A stretch of 64,000 nucleotides of DNA. Source: Eledone cirrhosa (taxonomy: Eukaryota). Below, one piece after another: positions 428-17,844 of this stretch (its first letter is position 1; the number at the start of each line of letters is the position of its first letter). The DNA lies in NCBI GenBank assembly GCA_964016885.1, contig OZ024744.1, positions 109,802,001 to 109,866,000 on the forward strand, in the 5' to 3' direction. Position numbers and translations under genes: made by a program. The notes beneath the pieces are model-generated. The model was given only the letters and a program-made list of their open reading frames with translations. It was not told the DNA's origin and searched no databases.

Positions 428-1380
428 GTTAAGGGTGAAAGCAGCGATTCTTTGCTTAAACTTTAAACTGTTATTTTATTTTAATAAATATTTGGTTGCG
501 GGTTCTTATATATTTGATATATCCTTATCGAGCCCTCTTTGGATTTTAGTCTTCACATTTATTATATATATATATATATATAGTATTAAGGATACTATTT
601 ATGGTTATGTATATACTAAAACTTTTTATAGTTATATATATTTTAAACCCTAAACAGTGAAAGACAGTAATATATTACTACCTTATTACCAGTAAGATAA
701 ATAGCTCAATGTAATAACATCAGTTGTTCTACAGAGCAGTTATATAGAATTCACATGAATCAAAGTTCTGTTCAAACCATTTATTAGCTTACAATTGTTT
801 CATCCAAACCGAGGTTTGGAATCTTCGGAACATTTTTCAATGTTTGTTTACATACATGACCTCCTTTCCAACACAAGAGACATACAGATACATATGTATA
901 TATTGATGCACAGTGGGGTGACATCCATTATATTATTTCTAAGGATAAAAACATCCCGTATCTATCGATTGGTCTATTTTAGACCATTCGAGGGAGTACC
1001 AAAGGGGCACAAAGAATTGTTCTTTGTGTACCACTGAAAAATTTTGCATTTTACAAAACTTGAAAGCCACTTCAACTTGCCTGAACTCCAAGCCTGAGAT
1101 CTTCAGATGTTGTCCTCACCTGAAATCACATCCGATCTGTAACTGGATTGACATTCCTACGATAACTCAACCACCTTGAACTCCTTCTCTGCTCTCTACG
1201 CCTTACATCCACTACGATTTTTTTACATTCTGAATTCACTTTCTGTACTCTTATATTCTTTTTCTCCCTTATCTCCCCTTATATTTAAACCTTTTCCTAT
1301 GTCATTTATTCCCCCTTTTCTCCCCTCCTTTCTACCTTACCCTTCACATACCCACCTTTTTTATTTTTATATATTTATTT
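428..1380 (+). mobile_element. Non-autonomous Penelope-like element remnant (C-terminal GIY-YIG endonuclease fragment plus pyrimidine-rich tail), copy 1
   Basis: 961-1179 translates SIDWSILDHSREYQRGTKNCSLCTTEKFCILQNLKATSTCLNSKPEIFRCCPHLKSH, matching the W-x-IL...Y...C-x-LC-x2-EK...LN...E...C-x-H tail of PLE GIY-YIG domains. 428-466 and about 952-1380 are reverse-complement homologs of 5640-6099. Confidence 0.65.
787..831 (-). ncRNA. Type I hammerhead ribozyme motif, slightly degenerate (U4C)
   Basis: Minus strand reads GTT CCGAAGA T-TCCAAACC-TC-GGTTTGGA-T GAAA CAATTG TA AGC. The core is one mismatch from CUGANGA, stem II is 7-8 bp, the stem III insert CAATTG is palindromic, the UH site is UA, and stem I is 3 bp. 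Confidence 0.65.
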
Positions 1381-2337: not shown

Positions 2338-2569
2338 ATGTATTTGCATAATACTATACAGAGATTTAATGCTTATTTTCATTGATCATTTGCTCCAGGA
2401 ACTTATTGAGTGCTCTAAATCAGCTTTAAACATTTATACCCTTTTCTAATTATTTATTTATTTATTATTTGTCGTATTCCCAACTTTTTATTTTTATATA
2501 TATATAATATTTATGTATTTTCTTATATATATATATATGTGTGTGTGTGTATGTGTATGTGTATATATA

Positions 2570-2613
<44 letters not shown>

Positions 2614-2726
2614 GGAGGTGAGTTTTATTGTAGTACAATAAAGCAATGCAGATATCGGATAAGAAGCACTCTACAGTTTGTGGGACTGGAGTATGCATAA
2701 TATAAGATCAAAAGATGGTTAAAGGA

Positions 2727-2812
2727 GTTCAATATATTTTATTATGCGCATTTCAAAAACAAACATCATCAAATAATAATATTTGTGTTTTCATCAGATA
2801 AAACAGGAGAAC
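2727..2812 (-). ncRNA. Type I hammerhead ribozyme, mirror copy on the minus strand (left palindrome arm)
   Basis: Exact reverse complement of 2921-3006 because of the palindrome. On this strand it is followed by the conserved downstream hairpin (2693-2667), an AATAAA and then (TA)n. Confidence 0.85.
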
Positions 2813-2920
2813 ATGATATGAAGGCTAAAAAAACACTTGTTGATAGTGCAGTTTTAAATCAACATATATGTTGATTTAAAACTGCACTATCAACAAGTGT
2901 TTTTTTAGCCTTCATATCAT

Positions 2921-3006
2921 GTTCTCCTGTTTTATCTGATGAAAACACAAATATTATTATTTGATGATGTTTGTTTTTGAAATGCGCATAATAAAATATA
3001 TTGAAC
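2921..3006 (+). ncRNA. Type I hammerhead ribozyme with intact catalytic core (right palindrome arm)
   Basis: Stem I is TGTTTTAT(2928-2935)/ATAAAATA(2991-2998) plus GTTC/GAAC. CTGATGA is at 2936-2942, a stem II of about 16 bp at 2943-2978, GAAA at 2979-2982 and palindromic TGCGCA at 2983-2988. U16.1-A17 is at 2989-2990. Confidence 0.85.
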
Positions 3007-3028
3007 TCCTTTAACCATCTTTTGATCT

Positions 3029-3065
<37 letters not shown>

Positions 3066-3640: not shown

Positions 3641-3647
<7 letters not shown>

Positions 3648-3905
3648 AAGTAATTCCGTCGGAAAAGACCAGGAAAAAAGAGTGCTCTATGTAGGTAACA
3701 GAGCTTAATAGTTATGTAATAAACAACATAAGGCAATTATTCCATTTACCAGTGGTTTCTTAAAAGCAAAAGATTTTGCTTTCAATCCTCAGAATGAAAA
3801 AATCCTGGTCTGTTTATTGAATTTGGATTTTAAAAACAAAAATGCAATCTATATGGAAGTGAGGCTGGAGAAGGAAGAAGGAAAGGAAAAATAAAATCAA
3901 ACTAC
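3641..3905 (+). repeat. Dispersed repeat module (copy 1; inverted copy at about 6320-6575, partial direct copy at about 5422-5510)
   Basis: TGTGAAGTAATTCCGTCGGAAA...GAGTGCTCTATGT...TTTCAATCCTCAGAATGAAAAAATCCTGG...GTGAGGCTGG matches the reverse complement of 6320-6575 with scattered substitutions. Confidence 0.85.
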
Positions 3906-4272: not shown

Positions 4273-4353
4273 CTATATTGTATTTTGTCTGAGGAAGGCA
4301 TAACATATTGTTAATATGATATCCCTGAAATATATATAATGAAATAAATATGG
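4273..4353 (+). ncRNA. Type I hammerhead ribozyme with intact core inside an island of about 210 bp (4267-4475) flanked by (TA)n
   Basis: Stem I is TATTTTGT(4281-4288)/ATGAAATA(4339-4346), extendable to 4273/4353. CTGAGGA is at 4289-4295. Stem II AGGCATAACATATT/AATATGATATCCCT is 14 bp with 2 mismatches. GAAA is at 4327-4330, then palindromic TATATA, then UA at 4337-4338. Confidence 0.8.
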
Positions 4354-5074
4354 TTTTATAAATATAGTTTCCATTTATTTAATATCATAAATATACTCCA
4401 AATACTTGTTGAGTGCTTTTATATCAGTTATAAATATTTACTAGTTGTAACCCAACAATTTAAATATAACTTTCCATATATATATATATATTTATGTATA
4501 CAAGCATACACATACACAAACATAGCCATACACACATACATAAACATACATACATACATGCACACAATCGTACATATATACACACGTACATACATACACA
4601 TACATAAATGCACTCCTCTACATATTCACACACGCAAATAAATATAAGAAAAAATATATATATTAAAAAAAAAAAAATTTTTTGACAGAGATACAGAACG
4701 CAGCTAACTGGACAGACACGCGTGGTAAGTAATACACACAAATGCACGTATACATACGTACGGAATAGTAAATACATACACACACTCTCGCACATAAATA
4801 TACATATACAAATACATAAACACATATATACACATACATGCACAAACACGCACACGTATACAATATATACACACACATATGTATATGTAATTATATACAC
4901 ACACATATATATATATATATATACATAAATATAACACACACACATATATATATACATACACACATACATATACATACATAGCTATACAATTATACACATA
5001 CAAATACGTACATATCATAAACACGCACAACCAAATACAAACACACACACACATACATACATATATATATATAT

Positions 5075-5327: not shown

Positions 5328-5639
5328 TACACATATACATGTGTGTGTGTGTGTGTAAAACTCAGTCTTAGATAATTCATATGAACCTTACATATACATA
5401 TATATAGTAGTAAAGTAATAAAGTAATAAGCAACATAAGGCAATTATTCCATTCACCAGTGGTTTCTTAAAAGCAAAAAATATTTCCTTCAATCTTCAGA
5501 ATGAAAAAAATATACATACATATACATACATATACACACACAAATATATATATATACATATATATACACACACATATACATACATATATATATACATATA
5601 TATACACACAAATATACATACACATACACATAGGAGTGT

Positions 5640-6099
5640 GAAGGGCAAGGCAAAAAGAATATATGGGGGGGGGGGGCATAGGAAAAGGTGAAATATAAGG
5701 GGAGGTAAGGGAGAGAAAAAAAAAATATACAAGAGTACATAACGTAGATTCAGCAAAAAAACCGAAGCAGAAGTAAAGAGCAGAGAAGGAGTTCAAGGCG
5801 GTTGATTTATCATAGGAGTGTCAACCAATTACAGATCAGATGCGATTTCAGATGAGGACAGCATCTGAAGATCTCAGTCTTTGAGTTAAGGCAAGCGGAA
5901 GTGGCTCTCAAGTTTAGCAAAATCCTATACTTTTCTGTGGTACACAAAGAACAATTCTTTGTGCCCCTTTTGTACTCCCTCGAATGGTCTAATATAGACC
6001 AATCAATAGAGTACGGGATATATATAATAAATATATATATAATAAATATTATATATATATTAAAGTTTAAGCAAAGAATCGCTGCTTTCACCCTTAACG
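5640..6099 (-). mobile_element. Non-autonomous Penelope-like element remnant (GIY-YIG C-terminal fragment), copy 2, inverted relative to 428-1380
   Basis: ORF 5810..6091(-) contains IPYSIDWSILDHSREYKRGTKNCSLCTTEKYRILLNLRATSACLNSKTEIFRCCPHLKSH. It shares the CGTTAAGGGTGAAAGCAGCGATTCTTTGCTTAAACTTTA end with position 428. Confidence 0.7.
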
Positions 6100-6319: not shown

Positions 6320-6575
6320 TTTATTTTTCCTTTCCCGCTTTCTTTTCCAGCCTCACTTTCATATAGATTATATTTTTGTTTTTAAAATCCAACGTCAATA
6401 AATACACCAGGATTTTTTCATTCTGATGATTGAAAGCAAATTTTGTTTGCTCTCAAGAAAACACTGGTAAATGAAATAATTATCTTATGTTATTTATTAC
6501 ATAACTATTAAGCTCTGTAACTTACATAGAGCACTCTTTTTTCCTGGACCTTTCCGACGGAATTACTTCACACAT
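6320..6575 (-). repeat. Inverted copy of the 3641-3905 module
   Basis: Reverse-complement similarity over about 250 bp, extending into the adjacent degenerate microsatellite. Confidence 0.85.
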
Positions 6576-7724: not shown

Positions 7725-8194
7725 AAGTGAGTAGAGTAGCGTGTGTGTGTTTGCTGTATGTATGAGTGTTGCTGTGTGCGCATATGTATGCGTGTGTGTG
7801 TATGTCGTACGTATAAGTGTCAATAAGTGAGTTTTTTTATTTATTTTTTTATTTTTCGCGGGGACATAGAAATAATCGGGCTGGATGCCCGATCGCGCAG
7901 TTAAACCACTGGGAGTGAAGAACCCCTAGCCCTTGTCAGGGCATTCTTCTAGGAGAAGGCATCTCGGGAAACTGGGTTAACTCCGATATAAAACCTGCGG
8001 CTCAGTAGTTACCGATGATGTTGATCTTTTCTTCTTTTCGGGTTATAGCTACTGTCGCTCAGAGAGTGGGATTGGCTCAGTGCACAGTCTTTCCTCACTT
8101 TAAAAATATTCGTCACGCACAGGCATTGCACGAGTGCATTAATAATTATTAATATTATTATTACTATTATTATTACTTTTTTTTTTTCAATTCA

Positions 8195-9619
8195 ATGATG
8201 TTCCAGAACAATATAAAAGAGATAATTGGCAATTTAGGTTCTGGAACAAAAAAGATAATTGGCAATAAGGGCAGGGGCCCCAGGTTATCACAGCCTGGGT
8301 CCGCTCGTCATCGTGCCATTGTAATAGAGCCAAACAAGGCACTTAGTCTTGGCTGCTGGAACGTACGGACGCTGCTTGATAGGGATTCCTTGGAGCGTCC
8401 TGAACGAAGGACCGCTCTTGTTGCAAAGGAGCTTCGACGTTACGATCTTGACATCGTGGCTTTATCTGAGACGAGGTTAGCTGGAGATGGTCATCTTACA
8501 GAATTTTGTGGAGAATATACATTCTTCTGGAAAGGAAGAGATGAAGGAACCAGAAGAGAGGCTGGGGTAGGATTTGCTGTTAAGACTGTTCTGAATAAAT
8601 TAGAAGAATTCCCAATAGGGATTAGTGAGCGTCTTATGTCCATGAGAATTCCGCTGGACAAAGGAAGATATGCGACACTGGTGAGTGTGTATGCTTCAAC
8701 TATGAATTCTGTCGATGAAGAAAAAGTGTCCTTTTACCATGCCTTGAAAGGTGTTTTAAGAAATATCCCTCAGGCAGACAAAGTCATCGTGCTTGGTGAC
8801 TTTAATGCTAGAGTGGGTAGGGATTTTAACACATGGAATGTAATCGGAAGGCATGGGGTGGGAAAGTGTAACAACAATAGTATGCTCCTGTTGCAGATGT
8901 GTGAGGAGCTGGATCTGTGTGTTACCAACACCATGTTCCAACAAAAGAACAAATTCAAGACCACATGGATGCATCCTGCATCTAAGGAATGGCATCTTTT
9001 GGACTACGTCCTAGTCAGGATGCGTGACAGACAGGATGTGCAGTGTGTTCGTGTTCTTCGTGGAGCTGAGTGCTGGACGGACCACCGCCTGGTACGCGCA
9101 AAAGTGAAACTAATCACTAAACGTAAAATCCGGGCTCCTGGTGTTGCCCTGCCCAAAAGATTGAATGCTGCTCGTCTTAAGGATAAAAATGTGAAGAGGA
9201 CATTGGAAGAAGAGATGCAGGCTGCAGATCTTGGTGAGGATTGGCCGACCCTTAAAAAGTCGGTTTATGATGTAGGCAGGCGTGTTCTGGGATTGGTGCA
9301 GAGAAAACATCAGGACTGGTTTGATGAGAATGATGTACATATAGAAGACTTGTTGGCTGATAAGAGGCCTGCTCTGTCATGCTACTTGACGGCAAAACCA
9401 CAGGAGAGGAATACGTTGCATGAGGAACTCAAGGATGTAAAATCACGCGTTAGGCGGAGTCTTTCTCAGATGAAGGATCAGTGGTGGAGTGAGAAGGCTG
9501 GTGAGATACAAACTGCGTCAGATTCCAATAACACAAAGCTGTTGTACAGTCTCTTGCGTAAGGTTTATGGACCGTCTTCTTCTCTGGTGCCACCGCTTCG
9601 CAGCAAGGATGGCAAATAA
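8195..9619 (+). pseudogene. RTE LINE apurinic-like endonuclease domain and linker
   Basis: Motifs LGCWNVRTL, DIVALSETR, GVGFAV, VLGDFNARVG, TWMHP..KEWHLLDYVLV, CWTDHRLV and HQDWFDEND. Confidence 0.93.
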
Positions 9620-11304
9620 CTTCTTCGTGACTCACAAGGAATTCTACGAAGGTGGTGAGAGCACTTTGATGATCTTTTGAATCAGCCGTCTGTCGTCAGT
9701 GAAGATTTCCTCAATCTCATTCCAGAAAGTCCTGTGAAAGTAGCCCTCGCAGAACCTCCGACGCTTGTGGAGGTTGCAGTGGCTATCTCGAAGCTGAACA
9801 GTGGAAGGTCTCCAGGCATGGATGACATACATGCTGAGCTCCTACAATATGGTGGTGAGAGACTCCTGCAACATCTTAACTCTTTATTTGGCAGGATATG
9901 GGCTAATGAATCCGTACCTGAGGACTGGAGAGATGCAGTAATGGTGGTCTTGTACAAGGGAAAGGGTAACAGGAACGATTGTGGGAACTACAGAGGTATA
10001 TCATTGCTTTCTGTCGTAGGGAAAGTTTTATGTAGGGTGCTTCTAGACCGTCTGCTGACGCACATTGCAGATTGTGTTCTTCCTGAAAGTCAATCTGGTT
10101 TTCGTGCTGGGCGCGGCACTACTGATATGATCTTCTCAGCTAGACAGCTCCAGGAGAAGTGCATGGAACAAGGCTTGGATCTGTATCAGGTTTTTGTAGA
10201 TCTGACAAAAGCTTTCGATACTGTTAACAGAGTGGCATTGTGGAAGGTTCTCCAGAAACTTGGTTGCCCTGATAAGTTCCTTGCTTTAGTTAGATTTTTC
10301 CATGACGACATGAAGGCTTGGGTTAATGTCGGAGGTAACATGTCGGAGCCTATCTCAGTAAAAAATGGAGTGAAACAGGGGGATATTCCAGCACCGACCC
10401 TGTTTTCCATATACTTTGCAATGGTTTTCTGTATTGCATTCAGGAATTGCGAGCATATTTAACATCAGGCGCTTTGCTGCAAAGACAAAAGTATTTAACA
10501 TCAATCATAAGAGACCTCTTGTATGCAGATGATTGCGATCTTGTAACGCACACAGAGAGTGATATGCAGCACATTTTGAATGCATTTTCTGACGCTTGCA
10601 CTGCCCTAGGATTGACTATCAGTCTCAAGAAAACTGTCGTCATGTACCAACCTGCCCCTGGTAAGCAGTACACTGAACCAAATATCTATGTGTATGGTAA
10701 ACGACTGGTTGATCAGTTTGTCTACCTGGGAAGCACTGTCAATCGATACAGCAACCTTGACAGTGAAATCTCACTTAGGATTAGGAAAGCAAGTGATGCT
10801 TTCGGAAAGCTAGAAAGGCGACTCTGGGGTCGGCGAGACATATGCAGGGGGACAAAGGTAAAGGTGTACAAGGCATGTGTGCTCTCTTGTCTTCTTTATG
10901 CATGCGAGATCTGGGTCACATATCGATACTACCTTAAGCAATTGGAGCGTTTCCATCAGATGTGTCTCAGACGGATCCATGGCGTTCAGTGATGTTGAGA
11001 TTTTGGAAAGCTCTATGTGTGACAGTATAGAAGCTCTTGTGCTTAAGCAACGACTCCGTTGGAGTGGTCACCTTGCCAGGATGAAGGATTCTTTTATGGA
11101 GAGTTGGTTAAAGGAAAACGACCGCCACATAAACCAAAAAAGAGGTATAAGGATTCCTTAAAAGCCTCTTTGAAAGACGCTAACATCTCTGCTGATACAT
11201 GGGAAAATATTGCTGCTGATCGTAATAAATAGAGAAAGACTGTATATGAGGGAAAAGTTGCCTTTGAGGCATCTCGAATCGCATACGAGAAAGTAAAGCG
11301 GGAT
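9620..11304 (+). pseudogene. RTE LINE reverse transcriptase and thumb region (disrupted)
   Basis: Motifs GNYRGISLLS, ESQSGFRAGRGTTDMIF, FVDLTKAFDTV, GVKQGD, LLYADD (second frame), FVYLGS, RLRWSGHLARM and KRYKDSLK. Confidence 0.93.
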
Positions 11305-11661
11305 GTGAGGAAGGGCATTGCTGTTGCACTTCCAGACGGCGAGGCTCCTCCTATGGTGCTGACATGCAGCGTATGTGCGAGACTCTGCCTAAGCAAAGCT
11401 GGACTCGAAAGTCATCTTCGCAGTCATAAAGTAAGACCAGTGGTTGACTACCAGGCTGCTGTTGGAGATGCTACTCCTCATGCTTGCCAAACATGTGGTA
11501 GAGAATGTAAATCAGCAGGAGGGCTCAAGCGACATGCAAAAGTACATGAACTCCAACCACAGCCGGCTATTCCCAGTGAATGTTTTGGTTGCCGACTCTA
11601 TGCAAGACATTTTAGATCATTGGCTGAGTTAAAAAGCCACATTCGATCGCAGCGCTGTTAG
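11305..11661 (+). pseudogene. RTE LINE C-terminus with three C2H2-type zinc fingers
   Basis: CSVCARLCLSKAGLESHLRSH, CQTCGRECKSAGGLKRHAKVH and a degenerate CRLYARHFRSLAELKSHIRSQ. Confidence 0.85.
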
Positions 11662-12584: not shown

Positions 12585-13157
12585 TTAAACCAGCCATCTC
12601 ATTTCGCTTCTCTCTGATCGGTTGTTTATTTGCGGTTGCAGGCGTTTGATGAAAAGCGCTTCCTTGATACGTAACGTGCCGACGTTTCTTTCAGTCGCTA
12701 GAATTGTGACAATCGGCCTTCCGTCTTTGTTTCCGCATTTGTCTATGTGTTTCCGGAAAGACGAGGCCCTGGATTTAGTGTGTTCCTTGATCCGGATGTG
12801 CAAAGGTCGAATTGTGCTACCTACGTAGTATTGGTTGCACGTGTCACATTCTATCTTATACACGACGTATGTGCGTAGGCAACAGTTCGCATGGCGTATC
12901 GGGTAGTCTCTGAGGGAGCATGCGTCAGTAGATTTCCCGGGTTTCCTGGAGAGGCATCTTCGCAGGGAGGGGCCCGAGTGGGCCAGGTGGATGTCGAGGC
13001 CCTCCCTCCGTATAGCCTTGCGGATAGCGTTGGTGGTTTTCTCGCCCAGGTGTGGAATTTTAAGGAAGCACTTGCCTTGGGTGCCTCTCTGTCTCTTGCG
13101 TCTGGTGTCTCCTATTCTGTCTGTGATCGAGGTAGGGTACCCGTTCGTCTCCAGCAC
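12585..13157 (-). pseudogene. Penelope linker and GIY-YIG endonuclease
   Basis: Motifs LETNGYP, VVYKIECDTCNQYYVGSTIRPLHIRIKEH and IKEALFIKRLQPQIN. Confidence 0.92.
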
Positions 13158-13214
13158 CTCGAGGAATCGCTTGGTATGAGTGACACCACTCGCGGGATTG
13201 CATCTGTTTTTGAT

Positions 13215-14006
13215 TCACGCGATCTCGTTCGTGATGTATCCTCTTTTGGCACTGTTAGGGAGGGCGGACTTGTAGTGAACGAACAGGTCCCTGCAGGCTG
13301 CCTTTCGGTAGAAGTTGCAGTGGATCCTTCCCTGTTCCGTGATGTTGATTCGGAAGTCGAGGAGGGCAAGTGACCCGTCTTCGTTGGGGTGTTCAACACT
13401 GAAGTCAATGTTCTCGTCCGTGTTGTTGAACGTCTCATAGATTCTGTTCGCCGTGTCTTGGGAAGGTGTGAGGATGAGGATATCGTCCACGTACCTTGAG
13501 AAAAAGGCTACGGCGTTGGGGTGGCAGGCGTTGAGTGCCTTGCGTTCGAGGTTGTCCATGTAAGAGATCGCTAGCACACCTGATAGGCTTGATCCCATGG
13601 GCAATCCCGAGGTTTGTTGGTATGTTTGGTCAAGTAATCCGAAGTAGGTGTTGTCGACGACGATGGATAGGAGTTGGTGGATGTCAGTGGTGGTGAGCCT
13701 GAAGCAGTGTAGGTCGGTGGATTGGACGCGTTCCAACAGTATATTGACGGCCGGGAGTGCCGGGACCGAGGTGTAGAGAGCGACTACATCAAGGCTGAAG
13801 GCATATCTGTTATTCCTTCTGGTTTCGGGATCCATTTGATGCAGGCGCTTCAACACCTCCTCGGAGCTGTTGACGTGTCCCGGCAAGGTGTCTAAGATGG
13901 ATTTGTGTATTCTGGCTAGGAGCCATGAAATTTTGTAGAGTGGTCCCTCCACGCTCGATACGATGGGCCTGATCTTCAGGTCGGGTCCCTGTTTGTGTGT
14001 TTTCAC
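13215..14006 (-). pseudogene. Penelope reverse transcriptase (N-truncated)
   Basis: Motifs KTHK...IRPIVS, FSLDVVALYTSVP, QTSGLPMGSSLSGVLA, RYVDDIL, LALLDF, FYRK and HYKSALP. Confidence 0.93.
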
Positions 14007-14055
14007 GAGCCTTGATGTAGTCGCTCTCTACACCTCGGTCCCGGCACATTAGGAT

Positions 14056-14794
14056 ATGGCGACGAGACTACGAACGAGCGAAGCGATTAGGGCATTTACC
14101 GGTGATTAGGGCATTTACTGGTCGCAAGCTTACAGAAGATAGAAGATGTGGCTGACCTCATGGCACTGTACCTCGAGGGGGCGCGTTGGTACTCTTCCTT
14201 GAGTTGGATGAACACAGCCAAAGGGATGCGCAAAAGATTGAGAGGCGCATGATGGAAGCGTTTGCGGAGGGACCGTTAGCCGCTTTTGCTAAGCTGGCAA
14301 GAATTAGATGGAACGGTGAACTCGTTGACATTTTCGCAGCGGAAATACGGCGATTGGCCATGTTGGCTGGATATCAGGTGGAATGCGAACGCACGGCGCG
14401 GTTGGCGTTCATAAATGGATTTCCAGACGACATAGCGGTGAAACTGCAGCAAGTCCCGGGTTACAAAGAAATGGAGATGCGTTCACTGGTGGAGCAAGCC
14501 CGCATCATAGCAGAAGATGCCAAGAAGAGTGTCGCGGCGATAGCAACTACAGAGGCTCAAGACAGTTGGCAGCGGAATGGTGAAAGGGAGGCAACCACAG
14601 TACGCGGTCGCCCGCGAACGTTTAGAGGTCGCTGTTTTAGGTGCTAGGGCCCGCACATAGCGAGAGACTGTAGAGAGTCAAGGCCGGAAATAATATGCTA
14701 CCGGTGTAAGCGACCAGGCCACATCGCTACTAACTGCGACCAGGGAAACGATCCAAGGGGAACTACTGCGCCGGTAGTTTCCCCTTACGAGTAG
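14056..14794 (+). pseudogene. gag: gypsy gag with two CCHC zinc knuckles
   Basis: MATRLRTSEAIRAFTGD start and LYLEGGAL. Knuckles are CFRC*GPHIARDC (premature TAG at 14645-14647) and CYRCKRPGHIATNC. The natural stop is at 14792-14794. Confidence 0.85.
14743..14786 (+). promoter_or_regulatory. -1 programmed ribosomal frameshift signal (G GGA AAC plus downstream stem-loop)
   Basis: The heptamer at 14743-14749 is in the gag frame. It is followed by a 5-nt spacer and the hairpin AAGGGGAACTACTG-CGC-CGGTAGTTTCCCCTT. The -1 frame is open into the protease ORF. Confidence 0.8.
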
Positions 14795-14805
14795 AGGCGC
14801 TGCCC

Positions 14806-17520
14806 GTGGTGGAAGTCTTCGTGAGGGGAAAGCCACAGCGACCCCTCGTGGACACGGGTTGTACGACGATACTGGTGACCGCGGGGGTGGCACAGAGGTG
14901 GAGAGGGAAGAGCAGCGTAAGGGCAGTCGACGGCAGGAAAATTGAATGCAGAGGTCGCAGCGAGATGGAGATGGCGGTACGGAGAAGGAAAATAAGGCTT
15001 TCTGCCATCGTAGTTGACAACGTGGTGGATGGGAACGGCGTGGTTATGGGCGTGGACGCAATTAGCCGTCTAGGAGGCGTCACAGTGAACAACGTCGGTG
15101 TGTCGTTTGGCGGCGCTGCATCGGTATGCGCTGTGAGTACGCGACAGGAGAACGAGAAGGCCCACGAGGAGAAATACCCCGCTTACACTGTGCAGGACAA
15201 AGACTTCAAGACCATGTTCGATGGGCAGCGATGGGTTGTTGAGTGGTACTGGAAGGGAGAACCACCAACACTGAAGACCAAAGTGGGCTGCTATAAACAC
15301 ACATTGAAGGGAAACATTAGGAGCGAGTTCGAGCGAGAGTTAGAGAGAAGGATTGGGAGGGCATACTGATTCCCTGGAAGGAGGAGGTGAAGTGCGGAGT
15401 ATTGCCGTTAATGGCGGTGGCGCAACCCACGAAGAACAAGGTGAGGACGGTACTAGACTTTCGGGAGCTGAACGAGCACGTGGCATGCCACACGGGTGGC
15501 GAGGTCACGGATGTCTGTGGGGAAACCCTGCGTGAGTGGAGACGCATGACGGGGGGTTCCGCAATCGTAGATCTAAAGTCGGCATACTTACAATTACACA
15601 TAGATGAGAAGCTTTGGTAGTATCTGCTGGTCAGGTATAAGGGCCGGAGATATTGCCTGACCAAGCTCGGTTTCGGGCTGAGCTCCGCACCGAAGATCAT
15701 GGCGGCGGTCCTCAAGACCATTCTGGGAAAGGCCGACAAGATGAAGAGGGCCTACATTGACGCCATCCTAGTGGACGAGTCTGTAGTGTCGGCAGCGGAG
15801 GTCACGAGCCATTTACAGGGGTATGGACTGGCTGCGAAGCCGTCAGAAGCGTTGGGGGAGGAGCCGCGCTGGGGCTTAGGCTACGGTAAGACAGGACGGG
15901 CGTCTTGGTATTCCAGAGGGGAAATGAAGTTCCAGAACTGGGCCCAAGTATGAGTAGGTGGGAGCTTTTCTCGATGTGTGGAAAGTTGGTGGGTCACTAC
16001 CCGATTGCTGGGTGGCTCCGGACGGCATGCAGCTATGTCAAGAGACGAGCGGGAGGGGTGACTTGGAGTGACAGAGTGGGAGAGAGGACAGTGGCCATGG
16101 TGCAGGAGATCGTGGAGAGGGTGAAGGCCGACGACCCAGTGCGGGGACGCTGGTATGTTCCCAAATCGCAGAGCGGGACCGTATGGTGCGATGCCAGCAG
16201 CATAGCGCTGGATGTCACGTTGGAGATAGGAGGTGTTGAGGTCGAGGATGCAGCCTGGCTTAGGAAGAAGGACGACTGCAACCACATCAATGTGGCCGAA
16301 CTGAACGCGGTGTTGAGAGGGGTGAACCTCGCCCTGAGGTGGGGTCTGCACACCATCGAGATACGCACCGACTCGGCTACTGTACTTGGATGGGTGAGAT
16401 CAGTGCTCACCAGTGAGAAGAGAGTGCGAACGAGAGGGGCGGCGGAGATGCTGATAAAGCGCCGCCTGGGAACATTAGGAGAGCTGGCCACCGAGTTCGA
16501 CCTGAGGCTGAATGTAGTTTTCGTGCCCTCAGAGAAAAATAGGGCGGACGTCTTAACCAGGGTGAAGAAAGCCTGGATGGAAGCGCCGGAGGAGGTAGAA
16601 GAGGAGATAGCTGCCGTGTGTCGGCTGACCGGAGTCGCATCTGAAAGGGTTGCTTGACATGCATCACATGGGAGTGGATAGGACCCTGTTCCTAGCCAGT
16701 AGAATCGACTCGGACGTTAACAGACACAGTGTTCAAAGGGTGGTTAGAGGCTACGTCCGATGTCAGTCCATTGATCCCGCCCCGGGTGTGCACGAAACGG
16801 GAAGCCTCCCGGTGGATCTCGACTGGAAGCGATTGGTGGTGGATGTAACGCACTACCGACAGGAAACGTACCTCTCGATGGTCGACTGTAGACCAGGATG
16901 GATGGTGATATGGAGGGAGATGAAGACTGGAACGGCCGAGGAAATCATGCGGACGTTGAGAGAGGTGTTCTTGGACAACAGCGAAGCGTTCAGCTCGGAG
17001 GCGCTGAGGGAGATGCTCGATGGATGGAAGGTGGACTGTTTCTTCAGAGCAGCGTGCAGGCCGACCGGAAATGGAATTGTGGAGCGACACCACCGGACGA
17101 TCAAGGCAATGGCGGAGCGGGGCCACATCTCACCAATGGAGGCAGTGTTCTGGTACAACATGTCCCCTCGGGTGGGACAGGTTGAGGAATCGGTGCCACA
17201 CAGAGCAGTATTCAGATACGAGTGGCGGCACCCGTGCACGCCACCACAACGGCCAGTGGGGAGAGAGAGTGGATTCGTGTAGGTGGGCGAAGAAGTCTGG
17301 GTTAAGGCCCCAGATGTACGTTGCACATCTCAATGGGGAAGGGGAACGGTGACGGCTTAAATTCCCAGAACAATGTGTCCGTGGACGGAGTCCCACGTCA
17401 TGTCCTGGATGTCCGTAGAATCACTGTCAACGGACTCCGAGGAAGAGGAAACCCAAAGTGCCTCCCCAACACTGAGGAGATCGCAAAGAAGTCGCAAACC
17501 ACCAACCTGGACAGCAGACT
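14806..17520 (+). pseudogene. pol: gypsy pol (protease, RT, RNase H, integrase), disrupted
   Basis: Protease: LVDTGCT. RT: VRTVLDFRELN, DLKSAYLQ, LGFGLSSAP and YIDA (YxDD mutated). RNase H: WCDAS, INVAEL, RTDS, NRADVLTR. Integrase: HMGVDRT, VDVTHY, LDNSEAF, NGIVERHHRTIK. Confidence 0.92.
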
Positions 17521-17571
17521 TTCATATGCAGAAGGACGAGGGGGAAATTTATCCTTGAGATCAGCGGGGCG

Positions 17572-17844
17572 TGTTGGTATGGTGTAGTGTGCGGTGGCCG
17601 GAAGCTGGGGAGTGCTCGACCGGAAGAGTGCTTGACCGGAAGGGTGCTTGGCCGGAAGGGTGCTCGACTGGAAGGGCCTTCAGATCGGTCTCTCTCTAGT
17701 GGTGATCAGGAACTGTGTGGACGCAAGTTTGGCAGCTCCCGGGTGTTAATGAGTTGGACGCACGTGGAAGAGGAGAAACCAGCCATGGGATTTAGCGGCA
17801 CCTATGAAAAGCGGTAAGTGAGATAGCTTTTTCTAACTACAACT
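17572..17844 (+). repeat. Putative 3' LTR with internal 16-bp tandem repeats
   Basis: Begins TGTTGG after AGATCAGCGGGGCG and ends near CTACAAC. CCGGAAGRGTGCTYGR is repeated about 4-5 times at about 17598-17676. The right boundary is approximate. Confidence 0.55.

Follow-up and report, generated by a model that had tools for sequence, protein, structure and literature searches.

Animal Penelope-like elements (PLEs) of the Hydra clade share a small, conserved, bulged hairpin of the form RCUC-[variable stem-loop]-UH-GAGYRCU. It lies downstream of a hammerhead ribozyme (HHR), is doubled in full-length elements, and sits just 3' of the places where insertions end. We regard it as a real, conserved RNA-type element of a known retroelement clade, and one that is apparently undescribed. 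The reading we favor, with a probability of roughly 65%, is that the PLE protein recognizes every hairpin as a site in the RNA, by which an internal point of priming is set; a pair of hairpins would then give two ends and thereby the tail. The doubling, the assignment to the Hydra clade, and the insertion ends 5' of the motif all go beyond the first-pass annotation, which had reported a recurrent hairpin near the HHRs.

The window, meaning the whole 64,000-nucleotide stretch of DNA that was analyzed, begins with 7 kb of AT-rich animal repeat DNA in which PLE fragments lie between microsatellites (Table 1). Pattern scans and reading by eye identified five HHR-coupled hairpins, 42–56 nt 3' of the cut site. 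A covariance model, seeded with 10 hairpins of which none came from the window, ranked these five copies at the top of its 10 matches with E<=10 in the 64 kb. The three main hairpins of the first-pass annotation (4394+, 2693-, 737-) were recovered in place with the same letters, and its estimate of ~ 50–56 nt past the HHR cut agrees with the 56, 50, and 52 nt that we measured in the three complete cases. Two better copies had escaped it, 3704-3684(-) and 6512-6532(+), each 42 nt past an intact HHR. Two weaker copies had also been proposed. The one at 2391(+) is a decayed hairpin with C.A as its first inner pair, lying 41 nt after the cut site of an HHR remnant that is otherwise cut away, while the one at 1679(+) was rejected, being at chance level on either strand (E=4.9). 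The letters of the family A hairpin at 4395-4414(+) are ACTC/CAAATACTTG/TT/GAGT. Taken singly, the window hairpins are of ordinary stability (z -1.1, -1.5, -1.9).

Table 1. Hairpins, HHRs, and PLE ORF fragments located in the window (E, covariance-model value unless a profile is named)
Feature	Family	Position	Strand	Details
HP1 hairpin, long inner stem	B	704..737	-	E=0.034
HHR, CCGA core variant	B	783..835	-	read by eye, absent from pattern scans
Second Hydra-clade ORF fragment		949..1137	+	A9 profile 1e-12
Decayed hairpin behind truncated HHR	E	2392..2414	+	E=1.8
HP1 hairpin, ACUC/GAGU variant	D	2668..2692	-	E=0.5
Head-to-head palindrome	D	2692..3041		centre 2866/2867; HHRs at 2797(-) and 2936(+)
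HP1 hairpin	C	3684..3704	-	GCUC/GAGCACUC, the clade consensus; E=2e-6
HHR	C	3740..3799	-	predicted cut after 3747
Minimal type I HHR	A	4281..4346	+	predicted cut after 4338
HP1 hairpin, ACUC/GAGU variant	A	4395..4417	+	E=0.007
HHR	C	5423..5506	-	copy ends ~11 nt before expected hairpin start
Hydra-clade PLE ORF fragment, C-terminal		5825..6016	-	upstream of 5499 HHR across microsatellite; A9 profile 5e-12
HHR	C	6416..6476	+	predicted cut after 6469
HP1 hairpin	C	6512..6532	+	E=9e-6

Copies in the window end either just short of the hairpin or well past it. Two HHR copies, 2936(+) and 5499(-), both overlooked in the first pass, are of the first kind. The family D palindrome shows both, with a + arm that ends ~4 nt 5' of the hairpin (the short end) and a - arm that includes the hairpin and reaches a long end at about 2611, 57 nt past it. 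The (TA)n end of the family A copy lies at about 4475, 61 nt past the hairpin, and the family C copy at 3704(-) has its long end at about 3643-3646, identical by alignment to that of the 6512(+) copy. Families C (3654-3664), D (2625-2643), and A (4428-4470) have a second, unconserved hairpin immediately short of their long end. The 15-nt inner stem-loop of the family D hairpin (2692-2668(-)) is identical to that of HP2 in an otherwise unrelated Hydra element (L049:5084-5124(-)). A non-LTR retrozyme, in which 170–400 nt units stand head to tail in tandem with an HHR in each, was considered and rejected, as the window copies are solo or inverted.

Other repeats were also observed in the window. 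A Nematis-like PLE fragment at 12585-14027(-) holds RVT_1 and GIY-YIG domains and what resembles, by eye, a degenerate HHR in its 3' region at about 12150(-); the covariance model had no match to the hairpin in this element (12.6–14.0 kb). It adjoins a broken gypsy-like LTR retrotransposon, read by eye at about 14030-17800(+). A broken LINE with endonuclease and RT frames occupies 8153-11661(+) and, from its motifs, we take it to be RTE-like. A 22-bp satellite fills 18932-64000 with about 2050 copies at 91% matches.

The host elements were assigned to the Hydra clade through their proteins and layout. The two ORF fragments in the window carry a C-terminal GIY-YIG-type EN with CxxC and CxH around conserved E and N, and in their relatives C, C, N, C, and H are invariant. 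A full HMMER search returned 208 relatives at E<=0.001; a word-index search with the 67-aa ORF fragment gave no matches, and no relative was found in the viral contigs searched. An ORF extension over 724-943 suggested by tblastn was dropped, since the profile did not confirm it. ORFs of the outside loci contain a CxCX5C linker, RWK, DKT, and RT in the same frame (A9 consensus RMRWKA, ADKT, CNCRxKxxCP), all of them parts absent from the window. Sequence patterns place a putative type I HHR in the pLTR in the window and in the outside loci, with no Rfam match at gathering score, and insertion into (TA)n was seen in host contigs and in the ends of HHR copies. The Hydra clade is characterized in the available text of PMC8557442 by an HHR in the pLTR, the CxCX5C linker, CxxC/CxH around E and N, and the RWK motif, together with (TA)n targets, inverted 5'-truncated copies, and a one-sided tail. 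These features are shared by the elements analyzed here, the linker and RWK being present in the outside loci, and the motifs of the relatives match the clade as described there. Family C is probably linked to the ORF fragment at 5825-6016(-), from which a microsatellite separates it, and families A, B, D, and E, which have no ORF alongside in the window, were tentatively assigned from hairpin and layout alone.

Outside the window, the motif is conserved across 79 loci (65 families at 85% identity), taken as the best from 520 confirmed stretches of metagenome sequence, and across a held-out set of 17 further loci. The held-out loci, L080-L096, are Hydra PLEs flanked by (TA)n in bacterial MAG and symbiont assemblies; presumably they are host-animal DNA within bacterial bins, most likely contamination. 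The leader runs in the order HHR, first hairpin (HP1), second hairpin (HP2), and ATG, with a gap of 36–59 nt between the hairpins in 22 family-level cases. At least one hairpin was present at 34/38 ORF starts (loci not de-duplicated), with two in 24 and one in 10. The other four lacked a hairpin under the strict pattern, three of them having variants by eye. L077 has no hairpin, and the hairpins of L076 are stemless. Positional coupling was supported by sequence-only matches, 80 of 92 of which lay no more than 200 nt past an HHR or ahead of the start of an ORF, a space of 16,167 of 454,464 bases (3.6%). The covariance model gave 18 matches at E<=1 in the held-out loci, where L082, L087, and L090 have the same layout and L081 has a variant pair. 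By eye, four of the six published Hydra consensi in the available part of PMC8557442 carry the motif or a variant: Hydra-1_Ajap has two copies and starts 2 nt before HP1, Hydra-2_Ajap and Hydra-2_Amil hold the motif, and Hydra-1_Crog holds variants. The Hydra-1_Amil consensus stops before the motif, and no motif was seen by eye in the published Hydra-1_Obim consensus. An extra small ACUC/GAGU hairpin was observed in the HHR–HP1 interval of one subgroup (L013, L014, L022, L030, L044, L061).

The motif had not been recognized as a described one in the first pass, and a search of Rfam gave nothing relevant. There were 0 matches at gathering score in the window; at relaxed E, none fell on the hairpins, and what appeared was miRNA noise (E=1.1) on microsatellites and the palindrome. 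Six loci searched in the same database yielded a single miRNA match (E=0.13). Our literature search found no description of the motif, though subscription papers, figures, and Repbase reports could hold one. Hairpins are unmentioned in the text and supplement of PMC8557442 as available, and the accessible portion of bioRxiv 10.64898/2026.07.22.740005 does not contain 'hairpin', 'stem-loop', or 'tail'.

To measure covariation, GAGCnC in context was used as an anchor and joined to the nearest upstream GCUC, with no pairing rule. An upstream GCUC was present for 84/98 in-context anchors (14/98 lack it) versus 24/172 outside the context. Among 64 non-redundant cases from 38 families, the first inner pair was formed with a 2-nt bulge in 60, against 0.70 in shuffled sequences (0/2000 shuffles), and it was C-G in 39 and U-A in 18. 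With bulges of 0, 1, or 3 nt, this pair was formed in just 3–19%. Inner pairs 2–4 were paired at 0.67–0.71 versus 0.37–0.40 in shuffles. The bulge was UU in 35 cases, UC in 15, UA in 10, and other in 4, with U as its first base in 62/64. Since shuffles ignore kinship, the first pair of HP1 was mapped on a tree of 34 proteins (fetched loci only), where C-G changes 7 times, 3 of these changes being forced by starred branches; C-G and U-A have switched several times on this tree. MAFFT failed to align the 5' arm of 61 hairpins, so a fixed-length seed and anchored counts were used. The pairing in the model-fitted alignment (95.9% vs 81.1%) leans towards the model and is treated as secondary. In the host contigs, among the 40 of 100 variants listed, 3 fell in the 5-nt loop and 0 at the 16 stem and bulge positions.

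These counts describe two near-invariant arms 8–20 nt apart with a covarying inner stem between them, frequently of just 1–3 bp, and a 3' flank of ACU. By this pattern of pairing we judge that the hairpin is a structure. The near-invariance of the outer GCUC/GAGC stem arises partly from how the cases were chosen and may be overstated, as the loci were gathered with one subgroup's protein. Compensatory departures from it are ACUC/GAGU (window families A and D), GCAC/GUGC (L081), and GCCC/GGGC (published Crog), and mismatched outer stems occur in L009, L051, L060, and HP1 of L081. Of the compensatory changes claimed in the first-pass annotation, those in the inner stem hold, but the swap in the outer stem is seldom seen beyond the window. 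The TATC that it placed at the end of the motif is unconserved, and the 3' flank that is kept reads GAGC-ACU. Its proposal of a second structured element in this PLE family is supported by the covariation and by the HHR-coupled position in the outside loci.

The ends of insertions were located by comparing terminal with run-on copies of the same family over a visible range of -18 to +14. Thirteen termini were kept after two poly-A indel artefacts and two contig ends were left out. We found that 12 of the 13 stop 0–7 nt 5' of GCUC (4 at HP1 and 8 at HP2), with TA microhomology blurring every junction. This placement of the ends lends indirect support to the earlier suggestion of an 'RT-recognition or 3'-end signal'. 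Exceptions are an end at -12 (L018) and, elsewhere, one in mid-spacer (L016) and the 5499 copy at -11. In the held-out loci, short ends lie by eye at -5/-6 and long ends at -3/-4. Of the 74 copies with an HHR call, 21 extend past both hairpins, 13 meet a contig end, and 8 are other. The (TA)n ends that follow one hairpin lie 30–40 nt past GAGC in 12/13 cases, HP2 starting at 36–59, and one of these, L005, then runs on into HP2. Hairpin-less (TA)n ends lie 31–56 nt past the cut in 13/19, HP1 starting at 15–59; the other six are at 5, 9, 9, 72, 73, and 140, some of them false HHR calls. Families A, D, and B, which have no cognate ORF in the window, end 57–63 nt past the hairpin versus 30–40 nt in the outside loci.

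Two runs of one host sample gave 3151 and 2854 contigs that aligned at 80% likeness to family C. Among the piles of loose ends listed, one with (TA)n stands 4 nt 5' of the hairpin at 3708 (28 and 27 contigs) and another with (TA)n stands at 3646 (35 and 32). A third listed pile at 3671 (22 and 22) looks, by its letters, like a diverged subfamily tail. Read ends in RAD runs at 3652, 3735-3738, and 3820-3823 were discarded, as they fall on AATT, the library cut sites. Of 61 hairpins, 35 are preceded within 10 nt by a run of at least 4 in (TA) register, versus 14.4 expected (0/1000), with no enrichment in four neighboring intervals; this TATA-like run may serve as a pad for priming or may be left over from earlier junctions. 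Near-identical head-to-head pairs had one long and one short arm in 4/5 and two short arms in 1/5, a discordance that is not significant against even odds (p about 0.19). The 5499/6423 pair, only 80% alike, was excluded from this count. Two other arrangements were observed. At L090:1905-1950, an ORF-bearing copy starts at HP1 right after (TA)n, and by eye no HHR precedes it; HP1 can therefore form a 5' boundary as well. A single (TA)n tract can contain different PLE families, inserted tail to tail or nested and each adjoining the end of another, as at L049:2500-2960 and L056:2300-2540 and in L085, L086, and L094.

Since copies end a few bases 5' of either hairpin, the hairpins likely tell a telomerase-like enzyme where copying starts, which would explain the optional 'tail'. 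There is precedent for this in concept: in telomerase RNA (boundary/alignment elements), R2 (3' UTR), and hepadnaviruses (epsilon), a protein-bound RNA structure beside the template sets the RT start, with short primer-template pairing. The Hydra start differs from these in being internal, 5' of the hairpin, and one of two, and is not known to share any sequence or structure likeness with them. Under our proposal, the motif would act as sense-strand RNA, to which the RT-endonuclease protein would bind through the invariant face. The endonuclease would nick (TA)n DNA, whose 3' end would base-pair over 3–5 nt to the UAUA that precedes the hairpin and so prime copying of the RNA upstream. Because priming lies 5' of the hairpin, the hairpin that is used would never be copied: priming at HP1 would give tail-less (short) ends, and priming at HP2 would give tailed (long) ends, the tail being HP1 plus the spacer. 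Long ends would need a template in the order ORF-HHR-HP1-HP2, and thus an uncut tandem transcript or a circle. The Hydra protein was predicted with a mean pLDDT of 91 and is closest to telomerase RTs, on which model residues 1-479 superpose (Z 14–17, rmsd 3.4–6.8). This alignment from residue 1 presumably reaches into the RNA-binding domain.

That genomic ends would mark RT starts is carried over by analogy. For the anole Poseidon protein, the available text of PMC11167929 describes RT from two internal start sites between which the tail lies; RNA 3' of these sites is needed, and HHR cleavage is dispensable. As described there, the Poseidon element PAc resembles the Hydra elements in having two internal starts 3' of the HHR that bound the tail and in the involvement of a stem-loop; we also noted by eye a 3'-bulged hairpin after its +111-118 start, inside the required 172 nt. 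It differs in that its initiation region lies within the ORF and that an AC-rich loop, not homologous to the target, contains the start (PMC11167929, in the text available). By eye it has no GCUC/UH-GAGCAC motif, and the part of that source available to us reports no duplicated element. An AC-rich initiation stem-loop of the PAc type was rejected for the Hydra elements, in which ends lie 5' of the hairpin at the TATA-like run. The published Hydra-clade tail is 30–40 bp in the available text of PMC8557442, compared with about 55–85 nt here, starting with the hairpin.

A role in DNA is the rival that survives best, although we consider it unlikely. The GIY-YIG endonuclease would recognize the motif as a duplex, a cruciform, or a single-stranded cDNA hairpin and cut the 5' TATA, whether for the insertion of new copies into older ones or for the trimming of an intermediate, and the ends would be cut sites rather than start sites. 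The place before a hairpin is indeed also a DNA junction, as (TA)n directly abuts HP1 in L090 and HP2 in L005, an arrangement compatible with either reading, and the 14 G-U versus 10 A-C pairs give no strand signal. The tail is ascribed to EN-mediated resolution in the available text of PMC8557442, and the accessible part of PMC11167929 cites work according to which EN recognition requires the tail in Drosophila Penelope. However, the spaced arms with a covarying stem between them do not resemble a duplex site, no end contains the hairpin that marks it, and the Poseidon biochemistry in PMC11167929, as far as available, links tail ends to RT starts on RNA.

The short TA-rich leader offers another explanation, which we rate as quite improbable: the hairpins would control translation of the ORF, either by cap-independent initiation once the HHR has cleaved or by a feedback in which the protein represses it, and the ends would be near them by virtue of the leader's length and composition. 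The last hairpin does end 21–28 nt before the ATG in 22 matches, and viruses and retrotransposons are reported to use ribozyme-linked initiation (PMC13725137, available text). Translation control predicts neither two end classes 0–7 nt before a hairpin nor a TATA enrichment confined to that place, though it could be a second role. Highly improbable, in our view, is an accessory to the hammerhead, such as a folding aid, a dimer contact, or a protector of the cleaved 5' end. HP1 lies 15–59 nt past the cut site in 33 cases, and the Poseidon HHR cleaves only with protein (PMC11167929, available text), yet HP2 is 92–134 nt away, the spacing is variable, many HHR copies end before HP1, and such a role does not explain the ends. 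Inherited sequence without structural function, for which the relatedness of all copies and the weak single folds might speak, is largely refuted, as the motif is kept twice while flanks and loops are unalignable between families, the C-G/U-A switches are repeated, and the bulge register is specific.

How the protein might read hairpins as start sites is suggested by the arginine sandwich, in which a bulge U follows a paired base and an A-U pair stands at n+3 (7SK U40:A43-U66; TAR U23:A27-U38; PMC6189040, available text). The Hydra hairpin appears to match this with a pyrimidine bulge after a Watson-Crick pair and A-U at n+3, the constancy of this A-U being not independent, as it is part of the search pattern. 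Its stem order is permuted, HP2 of the held-out L081 flips A-U to U-A, which argues against a strict U.A-U triple, and Crog has G-C; the likeness is a lead only. An extension of our reading that we hold to be possible but doubtful is that a PLE dimer binds both hairpins of a single RNA, HP1 and HP2, via such TAR-like arginine pockets, each subunit priming from one nicked (TA)n strand by telomerase-like UAUA alignment, with the cDNAs joined head to head. A dimer is predicted for Poseidon, whose start site is non-homologous to the cut DNA (both in the available text of PMC11167929). The 4/5 discordant head-to-head pairs fit such twin priming, which is suggestive only. If true, one dimer event would yield an inverted copy, a one-sided tail, and, on an HHR-made circle, tandem pLTRs.

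PLEs are the sister group of telomerase RTs, and the motif bears on how they choose their own RNA and an internal start, and on why their tail is optional (PMC11167929 and PMC8557442, as available). The two copies of this ~25-nt motif predict, to within a few bases, where either class of end falls, which opens the way to point-mutation experiments, and the motif can serve as a marker for annotating the boundaries of Hydra PLEs. If active in trans, it would offer a compact means of directing RNA-templated insertion to (TA)n.
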